Below, piece by piece: positions 60,640 through 64,000 of a stretch of DNA of 64,000 nt. Numbering within the stretch: the first letter of the stretch is position 1; the number at the start of each line of letters is the position of its first letter. The notes beneath the pieces were generated by a model. The model did no database searches. It was given only the letters and a program-made list of their open reading frames with translations, and had not been told where the DNA came from. Both the position numbers and the translations under genes were made by a program. The DNA is from Candidatus Aenigmatarchaeota archaeon (GTDB taxonomy: Archaea; Aenigmatarchaeota; Aenigmatarchaeia; QMZP01; QMZT01): contig QMZT01000002.1 of assembly GCA_003663325.1 (NCBI GenBank), forward strand, positions 731-64,730. The letters are read 5' to 3'.

Positions 60640-63600
60640 TCAGGGTATTGGGAACCGTGGGCTGAATGCCTTGTTGCCTCAGCACTTACACCCCGGTCCC
60701 ATTAACCCCCTCGTCTAGGGGACCTTCCTTCCCGCACCGTCCCTTGCGAGACAGCTTGGGAAATAGCCACCTCTTTTTGGGGGCGGCTTCGGGCTTAGAT
60801 GCCTTCAGCCCTTATCCGCTACGGCGTAGCTACCCGGCAATGCTTGGACAACCGGTAAACCAGAGGCCGCGACGCCCTGTTCCTTTCGTACTAAGGGCAT
60901 CTTCCCCTCAGGTGGCTAGCACCTCCAGCAGATAAAGACCGTACTGGCTCGCACCGTACTTAACCCAGCTAACGTGACTCTTTAATGGGTGAACACCCCC
61001 ACCCTTGGGCGCGTACAGAGCCTTTCTTCATATTTCTTTCCCTAAAGGCTTTCTTGAGGAAGCTTTAGCTCGTGTAAAGAAAGGCTTTGCTGCACGCCCA
61101 GGGAGAGCCGAGCCGACGGCGGAGAAGCAACGAGCGGGGTCGATATGAACTCTCACCCGCCACGACTCCATTATCCCCGTGGTAGCTTTTCTGACAGAGC
61201 TGGCTCCCAATAATGGAGCACAGCGGATCGCTAGGCCACGCTTTCGCGGCAGGATTCCTTGCTGTGTGGAATCCTGTCAAGCCGGCTTTTGCCCTTGCAC
61301 TCTTCCCCGGATTTCTGACCCGGGTGAGCCGACCTTAGGGCGCCTCTGATCTCTTGTCAGAGGCGTACCGCCCCAGCCAAACTGCCCATCTGCTGCTGTC
61401 CCCCGAAGGGTTAGTGATATGGCAACAGAAGGGTGGTGTTACATTGTCGCCTTTACATAACCCGAAAGTTATGCTGCATTGCTCCCACCTACGCTCTGCA
61501 TCCATCGCCATACCACAGCAACAGACTGCAGTAAAGTTCAACGGGGTCTTCTCGTCCCGCTGGAGGTCTCCTGAATATGCGCAGGACATTAATTTCACCG
61601 GGTCCCAGCCTGGGACAGTGGGGATCTCGTTAAGCCCTTCATGCAGGCCGACAATTAATCGGCAAGGGATTACGCTACCTTTTTCCAACCCTTTCTTTCC
61701 GTAAACGCTTTCTTTTTAAGAAAGGGTTTTAAGACGGTCAGAGTTACCGCCGCCGTTTACCGGGGCTTAGCCTCCTTGAAAGGAGGTTTCACACACCGGC
61801 ACCGGGCAGGCCTCAGGAGCTGTACAAATCCTTTCGGACTAGCAGCCCCCTACGTTTTTGTTAAACAGTCGGACCCCCCTTGTCACTGCGACCTACTGAT
61901 TCTAGCCAAGCTAGAACAGTAGGCACCCCTTATACCGAGGATACGGGGCTAATTTGCCGAATTCCCTAGGCTGGGTTATCCCGTCACACCTTTGCCTTCT
62001 CAGCAAGGGTCACCTGTGACGGTTCTCGGTACGGTCACAGAGGATCCTTCTCCACTTCCTTTTCATTGTCTCTAGGAGTCGGCCAAACCCCCTAACGGGG
62101 GCCATTCCCAACTTCACCTGGTTCTCACCATTACGGTACTCCCCAGGCTTAATTGGTTAGCCACTTGCGTGGTTGGCCTATCCCAAAGCGTCGGAAGTGG
62201 AGCTTGCGTCACCGCGTGTACCTCTGTGGTGCAGGAATATTAACCTGCTTCCCTTTCGGCAAACTCCTGTTAGGGTTTGCCTTAGGACCGACTAACCCTC
62301 AGCCGATGATCGTTGCTGAGGAAACCTAGCCCTTTAGGTGGTTAGGAATTTCACCTAACCTTGCTGTTACTATTGGCAGGATTCTTGTTCCTGCTAGGTC
62401 CACCCCAGCTCACGCAAGGGCTTCTACCCTAGCAGGACACCCCCCTACACCCACTTTCGTGGTCCAGGGTCTCGGTGGCCTGCTTAGTCCCGTCCATTTT
62501 CAGGGCCTTTAACCTGGGCGGGTGAGCTATTACGCACTCTATCCTCCCTTTTTACGGTGTTTTTTCGCTTAAGCCTTTTTGAGGAAGCATAAGCTCCCGT
62601 AAAAAGGCTTAAAGGATGGCTGCTTCTAAGCCAACCTCCCCGCTGTCTTAGGTTAAAGACACCTTTCCTCACTTAGCAGGCACTTTGGGACCTTAACCCT
62701 GGTCTAGCTTGTTTGCTTCTCGGACATCGAGCTTACCCCGATGCCCCCACTCCAACCTTCTACGGTGCTGGCAGATTCTGAGTTTGACAGGGTAACTGGG
62801 CCTTTCGACCCTTGGTTACCCAATCAGTAACTTTACCCTGCCAGCGACCTCTGGTTGGGCTGAACTTAGGTTCATTTCGGGGGGAACCAGCTATCGCCGA
62901 TCTCGATTGGCTTTTCACCCCTAGTCCTCGGTCAACTAAGCGGTTTGAATCCCAGCAATAGGTGCGGGCCTCCATCCCACTTTCGTGGGACTTCACCCTG
63001 CCGAGGACTAGATCGACCGGCTTCTGGTCTTACCCCTGTGACTCAGGGCGCTTTCACACCCACTCCCCTCACTCTTGCGAGTTGCGGGAGTTTTGCTTTC
63101 GCTTTGGCTTCTTTTCTTAACCTCGCCACAGAGGTAAACTCCCTGCCGCGTGTTTCGAAACGGGCGATATGACCACGAAGGCATGGCCATATCAACCTAT
63201 GGTTGCATGGTTTCAGGCTCTTTTCACCTCCTGTTACGGATACTTTTCAGCTTTCCGTCACCGTACTAGTGCGCTATCGGACTCGGGGTGTATTTAGGGT
63301 TGGGAGTTATTGGCTCCCATCTTCCCACTCCATATCCGAGGAGCGGTACTCTGGGATTCTGGGAATTTCCCTTCTGTACTACGCCTACGGGGCTATCACC
63401 CTCTATGGCACCCCTTTCCAGGGGACTTCGGCTCGTACAGCTAGGGAATACCCAGGCCCAAACCCCACATCCGCTTTGGCTCATCGCCAAAGCGTTCGGT
63501 TTGCCCTGTGCCGCTTTCCCTCGCCGGTACTAACGGCATCGCTATTGCTTTCTTTTCCTGCGGGTACTAAGATGTTTCAATTCCCCGCGTCCCCGTTCCA

Positions 63601-63755
63601 TGAAGGAACAGCTTGCGCTAGGAGGTCCCATTAGGGAATCCTGGGTTCAAAGCTCGCATGCAGCTACCCCAGGCTTATCGCAGCTTGCCACGCCCTTCTT
63701 CGGCCCCCGAGCCAAGCCATCCACCATGCAACCTATTGATCCTTTTATCTTGATG
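60640..63755 (-). rRNA. rrl: 23S (LSU) ribosomal RNA, about 3.1 kb, with two AT-rich internal insertions (around 61040-61110 and 62545-62615)
   Basis: Minus-strand reading contains GGUGGAUGGCUUGGCUCGGGGGCCGAAGAAGGGCG (5' domain), AGAGUUCAUAUCGAC (PTC region), the sarcin-ricin loop UAGUACGAAAGGAAC and GCUGAAGGCAUCUAAG near the 3' end. Ends are approximate. Confidence 0.85.
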
Positions 63756-63894
63756 GCTTGCCTTTATCATAAAAGGGTTCAAGCGGTGTTCACATCCTCA
63801 TCTAATTTCAGTAAATATAATCTCATCACCCCTTTCCAATCCACCCCTTATCACAGGATAAGGAGTTTCATATATCATATTTCGAGAAGCGCAG

Positions 63895-64000
63895 TGGACC
63901 GAGTGGGATTTCCCACCATTCATGCTTCTCTCCCGAGGGTCTCTTTGCGGAAGTGTTAGCTCCCGTAAAGAGAGGCTCTTCGAACCCACGGCCTCCGCCT
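63895..64000 (-). tRNA. tRNA-Ala (3' part; 5' end beyond window) in the 16S-23S spacer, with a 70-nt T-loop intron at 59/60 (63909-63978)
   Basis: Minus strand …GGCGGAGGCC-GTGGG-TTCGAA[intron]T-CCCAC-TCGGTCC-A. T70 would give the G3·U70 Ala identity pair. The anticodon lies outside the window. Confidence 0.55.

Follow-up and report, generated by a model that had tools for sequence, protein, structure and literature searches.

Why should one kind of short, AU-rich insert interrupt both rRNA genes and a tRNA gene of a single archaeal operon? The question is raised by 64,000 nt of contig QMZT01000002.1 from a Candidatus Aenigmatarchaeota archaeon (hereafter the window, meaning the whole stretch analysed), whose last 3.4 kb are filled by the 3' part of a ribosomal RNA (rRNA) operon on the minus strand. 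A first interpretation made from the letters alone (the sequence-only reading) had noted three segments with a shared core motif, two inside the 23S rRNA gene and one forming the intron of the spacer tRNA-Ala, and had proposed a small mobile or spliced family, either mini-introns or expansion segments, common to rRNA and tRNA genes. Our results support the mini-intron, mobile-family version of that proposal through splice-motif boundaries, tails matched to their own exons, empty sites in relatives and similarity across sites, with splicing itself predicted from these features. We conclude that the inserts very probably belong to an intron family without open reading frames (ORFs), bounded by bulge-helix-bulge (BHB) motifs, predicted to be removed by the tRNA-splicing endonuclease and a ligase, and spread among rRNA and tRNA genes.

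Six related inserts in one rRNA operon

The three segments lie on the minus strand where the sequence-only reading had placed them, and their shared core, TTTACNNGAGCTNANNCYTCCNCAA, matches three times in the window against 0.03 matches expected from shuffled sequences (0 of 100 shuffles reach three). The whole operon is included in a 91-kb metagenome contig (ENA ERZ27227322), reached via the Ham1-like gene adjoining the 23S gene; it is L001 among our L-numbered loci, which are sequences fetched mainly with the exact core pattern. Window and L001 together hold six related elements in the one operon: two in 16S, one in tRNA-Ala and three in 23S (Table 1). The three copies first noticed are thus genuine but too few. 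Both of the 23S inserts originally recognised are confirmed by the Rfam archaeal large-subunit (LSU) model, which exposes a third that had been missed, and the two 16S copies lie about 640–1800 nt past the right end of the window. Two other assemblies (L002 and L038) contain parts of the same operon, with the same inserts, so the operon inserts are no assembly artefact.

Table 1. Coordinates of the rRNA operon, its inserts and two further interrupted tRNA genes. Coordinates are those of the window unless L001 is named. Escherichia coli positions are presumed equivalents, set from textbook landmarks (A1067/A1095, psi1911-1917, A2503, Um2552/G2553; 16S primers 341F and 785F). CM, covariance model R1; a slash in the motif marks the predicted cut.
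Feature	Coordinates	Strand	Length and model comparison	Presumed E. coli position or tRNA site	BHB motif	Helices	CM score (bits)
Archaeal 23S rRNA	60628..63748	-	3121 nt vs 2987-position model; Rfam LSU_rRNA_archaea full length, 2667 bits				
Spacer tRNA-Ala(UGC), 3' part	63895..64000	-	gene start 36 nt past window end				
16S rRNA	L001 4290-5896						
tRNA-Ala(UGC)	L001 5932-6073						
23S rRNA	L001 6220-9340						
Intron 23S-A	62541..62608	-	68 nt; 69 nt vs 1 at LSU model position 1211	1085/1086, H43/H44 junction of GTPase-associated centre	uc CUUU aa/g CCUUUUUACGG...CCGUAAAAAGG GAGG au/a ga	H 4/4; inner 11 bp	65
Intron 23S-B	61681..61729	-	49 nt; 50-nt insertion at LSU model position 2030, model expects one base	1927/1928, just 3' of H69	acc GUCU ua/a AACCCUUUCUU...AAGAAAGGGUU GGAA aa/a ggu	H 3/4; outer 3 bp; inner 11 bp	22.5
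Intron 23S-C (23S-2534)	61013..61087	-	75 nt; 76 nt vs 1 at LSU model position 2628	2534/2535, helix-91 loop	GCAG ca/a AGCCUUUCUUUA...UGAAGAAAGGCU CUGU ac/g	H 4/4; inner 12 bp	80
Intron in tRNA-Ala	63909..63978 (L001 5990-6059)	-	70 nt	T-loop 59/60	GUGGG UUCG aa/g ... GGGA aa/u CCCAC (relaxed)	H 3/4; outer (T stem) 5 bp	66.8
16S-374 copy	L001 4642-4713		outside window	374/375	UCCC aa/a ... GGGG aa/u	H 4/4; inner 12-13 bp	
16S-793 copy	L001 5091-5162		outside window	793/794	UUAG au/a ... CUGA aa/a	H 4/4; inner 12-13 bp	
tRNA-Gly(CCC)	9238-9363	+	53-nt intron, 9297-9349	T-loop 59/60			
tRNA-Asp(GUC)	9430-9556	+	53-nt intron, 9490-9542	T-loop 59/60			

All six operon inserts are one sequence family. 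The five full-length copies align with a mean column identity of 73% and share an architecture of 5' arm, core hairpin, middle segment, 3' arm and site-specific tail; in the consensus fold the two arms form a long terminal helix that encloses an inner GGAGC/GCUUCC hairpin. A covariance model built from the family (R1) gives the full-length operon copies 65–90 bits. The three segments first noticed score 65–80 bits (E 1e-12 to 1e-16), and the 16S copies have the two best scores of the family, 90 and 86 bits. The 23S-B insert, a short variant without the core hairpin, was omitted from R1 since MAFFT misplaced it; R1 gives it 22.5 bits (E 0.01–0.035), and it resembles the 16S-374 copy in both arms and in the middle segment. 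With filters off, R1 found nothing further significant across the 64 kb, so that the 5-kb rRNA operon has six elements and some 60 kb of coding and other non-RNA DNA has none. The inserts are AU-rich within a GC-rich gene, as had been observed from the letters: those in 23S have 34–43% GC (42–43% for the two originally noticed) compared with 54% for the 23S gene.

Covariation was examined over 43 copies from the fetched loci. Nine of the 11 pairs of the terminal helix are changed on both sides, a score that 0 of 500 shuffles reach and that collapses in slid registers, although the count leans towards the model structure because the alignment was fitted to it. Since loci were fetched with the core pattern, ascertainment explains part of the hairpin's near-constant sequence, which weakens any claim that the core is under strong selection; copies recovered by the model alone keep the hairpin with altered sequence. 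A Box C/D or K-turn reading of the hairpin was rejected by inspection, as the consensus has neither C/D boxes nor tandem G·A pairs. Rfam matched only rRNA and signal recognition particle (SRP) RNA families over the window, with no Intron_gpI in the inserts, and at 49–75 nt the inserts are too short for a group I ribozyme core or a LAGLIDADG ORF.

Insert boundaries and the splice motif

The BHB known from pre-tRNA splicing in archaea and eukaryotes has two strands. On the 5' strand the outer helix is followed by a 4-nt central strand, a 3-nt bulge in which the cut falls behind the second base, and the inner helix; on the 3' strand the order is inner helix, 4-nt central strand, a second 3-nt bulge cut in the same way, and outer helix. 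The boundaries were scanned for this geometry in a strict form, with at least 3/4 pairs in the central helix (H) and both flanking helices present, and in a second scan without the outer-helix requirement. BHB-compatible geometry occurs in the correct register at the insert boundaries, which is what the sequence-only reading had proposed to look for. The motifs listed for 23S-A and 23S-B are the top solutions of the strict scan. Those of 16S-374, 16S-793 and 23S-2534 came from the second scan and have an outer helix of only 0–1 bp.

Independent placement of the junctions comes from intron-less relatives. For each of the five rRNA inserts, the junction given by the BHB register equals the ungapped empty-site sequence of 2–10 related DPANN loci: ten for 23S-A, five for 23S-B and two for 23S-C (L025 and L036). 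The split near position 1085 was correctly located at first, but its boundary is CCUUUAA/AGAGUGCG, 1–2 bases from the cut originally drawn. The tRNA-Ala junction is fixed by the cloverleaf. Removal of 70 nt restores a canonical tRNA-Ala(UGC) according to ARAGORN, with T-loop TTCGAAT and a G3:U70 pair, in accordance with its earlier designation as a 59/60 intron, and the unspliced gene is invisible to the same program. Textbook motifs of the strict form (hBHBh') also occur in copies from other genomes, at the T-loop (L048, L044, L006, L014 and L041) as well as in the D-loop and at positions 29/30 and 37/38.

The tail of each copy is matched to its own exon. In the operon, 22 of 24 positions of the 4-nt 3' tails pair with the exon (binomial P 1e-4), and over eleven distinct sites 40 of 44 do so (30 Watson-Crick and 10 G·U; binomial P 2e-9). 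Mismatched combinations of tail and exon pair at about 2/4 positions per site, and no derangement reaches the observed totals. Cleavage and ligation of the inserts, as far as they can be read from these signatures, are accordingly predicted events.

Copies in other genomes and site occupancy

The exact core pattern has 20 matches in 185,579 representative genomes, of which 16 fall in metagenome-assembled genomes (MAGs) of DPANN archaea, mostly Candidatus Aenigmatarchaeota; the four bacterial matches are about what chance would give. A further 37 matches were found in JGI metagenome contigs. The pattern had no match in the viral contigs of IMG/VR, and the idea of viral carriage was dropped. In the fetched loci R1 detects the 43 copies mentioned above at E <= 0.001, mostly on Aenigmatarchaeota-type contigs. 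Their rRNA sites are 374, 793 and reference position ~1297 in 16S, and reference positions 963, 1085 and 2534 in 23S. In tRNA genes they occupy the D-loop (L009, L020), the anticodon stem at 29/30 of a tRNA-Ser (L013), the canonical 37/38 position of a tRNA-Thr (L057), the variable region of a tRNA-Leu (L004) and, in many tRNAs, T-loop position 59/60 (L006, L014, L021, L041, L044, L045 and L048, several with a perfect hBHBh'). Nested copies are present in L004, L032 and L051.

Occupancy of these sites is patchy. Compared with the spliced rRNAs of this operon, sites that are filled here are empty in L025/L046, L019 and L036, and some are filled in common with L011, L039, L040, L017, L004 and L005; relatives are in turn filled at 16S ~1297 and 23S 963, where this operon is empty. 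Sequence similarity does not follow position. The 16S-374 insert is 92% identical to the 23S-2534 insert of L004, in a different gene, compared with 62% to the insert at the same 16S-374 site of L040. Likewise, the 23S-2534 insert is 89% identical to the 16S-374 insert of L040 and 80% identical to T-loop copies in tRNAs, compared with 60% to the 23S-2534 insert of L004. This cross-site similarity indicates transposition, intron-by-intron replacement, or ectopic conversion of the intron body with retention of site-specific tails. Comparison of filled with empty sites revealed no target-site duplications at the six operon sites. We infer that movement, beyond gene conversion alone, lies behind the pattern.

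Some copies occur in unusual arrangements. In L048 (2450-3150, minus strand), a 171-nt unit made up of the 3' part of the intron, the tRNA 3' exon and a spacer is repeated three times in tandem after the tRNA. In L032 (3480-3920, minus strand), L051 (8750-9080) and L029 (~5980), copies start exactly 2 nt past the tRNA 3' end (...CCA-UU-GAGCC...), and some such post-tRNA copies are nested in the core hairpin of another element. These arrangements may have arisen by recombination among copies of the intron, or they may be alternative cassettes for the 3' exon. Hairpin-only copies, consisting of arm, core and arm without the distal 3' arm, are found at L059 540-660, L015 5408-5452 and L020 3406-3454. 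These tandem copies are closely preceded by a TATA-like TTTATAAAG and followed by a terminator-like hairpin; they belong to no recognised RNA gene, and two contigs of one MAG end within them. Such copies might constitute an independent gene for a small RNA, or the module from which the family descends.

A second intron family, with a body unrelated to the first, is present in the window. The introns of tRNA-Gly(CCC) and tRNA-Asp(GUC) are identical at 52 of 53 positions, and both tRNAs are canonical after in-silico splicing, so that a 59/60 intron occurs in all three tRNA genes seen (Ala, Gly and Asp). On the raw sequence ARAGORN misses tRNA-Ala and tRNA-Asp and mis-calls tRNA-Gly as an intron-less gene of 73 nt; all are called correctly after in-silico excision. 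The Rfam tRNA model misses tRNA-Gly and tRNA-Asp. The tail of the Gly and Asp introns (AAGCAUG..GGGAAA) resembles that of the tRNA-Ala intron, which could therefore be a chimera of the two families, to judge from this resemblance.

The rRNA genes of DPANN relatives contain many small extra blocks, as well as large inserts. One of 718 nt sits precisely at the 23S 1927 site (L039 2337-3054; L055 1452-2169), others of about 1,000–1,100 nt lie near the 23S 3' end (L039 148-1169; L019 79-1214), and one of 659 nt lies in 16S (L039 12370-13028). A group I identity for the large inserts was considered and set aside, there being no Rfam match in L039 at gathering score. An insert of 100–212 nt recurs some 40 nt short of the end of 16S on its 3' side (L011, L019, L025, L027, L036, L043, L046 and L047), close to the known group I site at position 1498 of the small subunit (SSU) rRNA (PMC6125680).

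Elsewhere in the window, an archaeal SRP RNA gene (3515-3787, minus strand; 160 bits, with 273 nt where the model has 317 positions) has no insert, so some structured RNA genes of this genome are uninterrupted. No 5S rRNA gene follows the 23S gene at 60005-60628 (minus strand), where a Ham1/ITPase-family gene comes next, about 40 nt downstream. Other neighbours (17924-23671, 24815-25351 and 37477-44919, all plus strand) are ordinary housekeeping genes, including a split RNA polymerase subunit B, ribosomal protein L6, CTP synthase, carbamoyl-phosphate synthase, RFC and a membrane complex resembling Mrp antiporters and NADH dehydrogenase.

Proposed mechanism, rival explanations and known systems

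Under the BHB-intron reading, the 5' and 3' arms of the intron would pair in the primary transcript into a helix of 10–13 bp, and the four intron bases after this helix would pair with four exon bases lying 3–6 nt upstream of the 5' splice site. This pairing would leave two 3-nt bulges with a splice site after the second base of each. Cleavage of the two bulges would be the work of the host tRNA-splicing endonuclease (EndA), after which an RtcB-type ligase would join the exons into a normal 16S, 23S or tRNA-Ala. The family has very probably colonised, or exchanged sequence among, many rRNA and tRNA positions in Aenigmatarchaeota-type DPANN archaea, and in that sense behaves like a mobile element confined to genes for structured RNAs.

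Several observations weigh against this interpretation. The outer helix of the rRNA copies is weak (0–3 bp), which makes them relaxed BHBs that would need a broad-specificity endonuclease, and the tRNA-Ala copy has lost its inner helix and keeps only 3/4 central pairs. The 5' arm can also pair with the middle segment into a long hairpin that excludes the splice-competent fold. This is the hairpin drawn in the sequence-only reading, and it is a real alternative, being the centroid structure for 23S-A; the splice fold instead pairs the 5' arm with the distal 3' arm. Minimum-free-energy folds do not give the exact BHB in every case. In the permutation test of tails against exons, 5 of the 11 registers had been chosen by the BHB scan itself, although the spliced products, checked separately afterwards, are sensible tRNAs and rRNAs. 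A minority of copies lie outside any mature RNA, in a 16S 5' leader (L019), in tRNA trailers (L029, L032 and L051) or as intergenic hairpins (L059/L015, L010 and L012). One copy is antisense, within a canonical tRNA-Lys(UUU) intron of about 110 nt (L007 830-1080, minus strand; L031 and L049 identical) whose own 37/38 BHB is well formed (CUUU ua/g ... GAGG aa/a). It is the sole antisense copy seen, against about 30 distinct sense copies with an identified host. Finally, a non-exhaustive check of 20 ORFs, selected by size from the 64-kb window, turned up no EndA or RtcB and no transposase, integrase or reverse transcriptase.

The alternative named in the sequence-only reading, that the rRNA inserts are expansion segments retained in the mature molecule as lineage-specific helices and that only the tRNA copy is an intron, is very unlikely and the least probable of those weighed. 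Small extra blocks are indeed common in related DPANN rRNA genes, and the inserts do fold into stable hairpins. Yet members of the same family occur in the D-, anticodon- and T-loops of tRNAs, from which removal is obligatory; occupancy is patchy among close relatives, with inserts varying within the lineage; the motif is far above chance; and the 3' tails covary with exon bases into a splice motif for which a retained helix has no need. The 790 loop, the H43/H44 junction, the region 3' of H69 and the H91 loop belong, moreover, to the universally conserved functional core of the ribosome rather than to its variable regions, so a retained insert of 50–75 nt would be disruptive. Excision without ligation, with EndA cutting the inserts out and the rRNA working in fragments as with bacterial intervening sequences, would make the family a fragmentation element. 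The BHB evidence bears on cleavage alone and would suit it, but five breaks would leave eight rRNA pieces, some very short, a pattern we know of nowhere in archaea, and the tRNA copies need ligation to yield a functional tRNA. Unusual archaeal rRNA topologies, such as circular or permuted 23S, are reported in PMC12918454 and a 2026 bioRxiv preprint, whereas a background statement in PMC4496867 has the same enzyme pair handling rRNA introns in other archaea; on balance we consider fragmentation very unlikely.

A DNA transposon resembling miniature inverted-repeat transposable elements (MITEs), which would insert anywhere and be merely tolerated in RNA genes thanks to the BHB and easily recognised there, is a further alternative. 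Inverted termini of 10–13 bp, nested and tandem copies, copies at the ends of contigs, where repeats interrupt assembly, the few intergenic hairpin-only copies and the antisense copy in L007 would all fit such an element, and tRNA intron gain has been suggested to proceed at the DNA level (Yoshihisa review, PMC4090602). Other evidence argues the other way. No target-site duplication occurs at the six operon sites, the free covariation of the termini leaves no conserved sequence for a transposase to bind, and each copy bears a site-specific 6-nt tail unexpected from a cut-and-paste element. Zero copies in the non-RNA DNA against six in the operon, the absence of a transposase among the 20 ORFs checked and the strong bias towards sense orientation in hosted copies likewise disfavour a MITE-like origin, to which we give hardly more credence than to retention. 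An IS200/IS605-type element (palindrome-associated transposable element, PATE), suggested by TTAC and TCAA beside the hairpin, was rejected because there is no common target tetranucleotide and only a single hairpin.

How BHB introns of this kind would spread is a separate matter. An autonomous RNA-level route, in which the intron runs the host splicing enzymes in reverse, is conceivable though unlikely. The purine-rich 4-nt tail of an excised circular intron would pair with a pyrimidine-rich stretch of another structured RNA, a BHB would form in trans as for split tRNAs, and EndA and RtcB would insert the intron, which would then be copied back into DNA. Wobble-tolerant tails (GGGG, GAGG, GGAA, GGGA, UGGA and CGGA) might serve as a minimal guide to rRNA and tRNA sites, and the conserved hairpin might stabilise the RNA or recruit machinery. 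The antisense copy in L007 is something that an RNA-only insertion route fails to predict. If true, reverse splicing would for the first time define how ORF-less archaeal introns spread and supply a tractable family in which to model it. Whichever level applies, the family offers a concrete system for distinguishing RNA-level from DNA-level insertion, with its conserved architecture, site-specific tails of 4 nt, nested copies, and sites that occur both empty and filled.

The preferred reading, a family of spliced BHB introns, also has practical consequences. Five rRNA introns in one operon and T-loop introns in three tRNAs defeat standard tRNA finders, and the 16S copies presumably fall within the regions of the common 341–357 and 785–805 primers (E. 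coli numbering). Introns in 16S primer regions and missed tRNAs can bias surveys and annotation of DPANN archaea. To our knowledge, "intron transposition" has been documented only for the tRNA genes of Thermoproteales, and the study of Fujishima and colleagues reportedly dealt with tRNA genes of Crenarchaeota only. A family with dozens of copies in 16S, in 23S and at at least five tRNA positions, in a different superphylum, indicates that BHB introns cross RNA classes. In the full-text literature, with subscription papers partly covered, we found no BHB-intron family common to rRNA and tRNA genes and none such in Aenigmatarchaeota.

Known systems resemble the family in part. Like MITEs and palindrome-associated elements, it is short, non-coding and multicopy, with inverted termini and nested copies; it differs in having no target-site duplications, covarying termini, site-specific tails and sense copies almost confined to structured-RNA genes. 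DPANN rRNA genes, including one Aenigmarchaeota 23S, are known to be rich in group I and BHB introns, with sites near LSU 1923/1931 and SSU 1498 (Nawrocki et al. 2018, PMC6125680), but the introns described there are ribozymes of 250–1100 nt, often with LAGLIDADG ORFs, whereas ours have 49–75 nt, no Rfam match and BHB boundaries. DPANN lineages also show increased tRNA gene disruption and variant endonucleases (PMC5829648). The non-canonical tRNA introns of DPANN and TACK archaea, associated with broad-specificity EndA, likewise occur in the D-loop, anticodon stem, variable region and T-loop with relaxed BHBs (PMC5829648, PMC3239211); those papers classify enzymes and intron positions and describe neither a paralogous intron family nor its presence in rRNA.

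The closest parallels are found in Thermoproteales. Their hairpin-only 16S introns are likewise small, ORF-less, BHB-bounded and patchy (Jay & Inskeep 2015, PMC4496867). Locus 374 is one of the 13 16S loci known there, and our 16S-374 copy splices at 374/375; 793/794 is outside those 13 loci, which include 781 and 803, the lineage is another one, and no relationship to tRNA introns is reported in that paper. Near-identical tRNA introns in unrelated Thermoproteales tRNA genes were read as intron transposition (Fujishima et al. 2010, Mol Biol Evol 27:2233, as relayed in PMC4090602), and, as that review relays it, insertion is limited to places able to form a BHB, as it seems to be here. The similarity of more than 70% between distinct genes or positions by which Fujishima et al. 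recognised transposition, again as relayed there, is exceeded by the 80–92% between our 16S, 23S and tRNA copies, compared with 60–62% at the same site. The Thermoproteales transposing introns appear in the relayed account in tRNA genes only, whereas the present family occupies 16S, 23S and tRNA genes in Aenigmatarchaeota-type DPANN MAGs, and its nested copies and recognisable common architecture set it further apart from the Thermoproteales tRNA introns.

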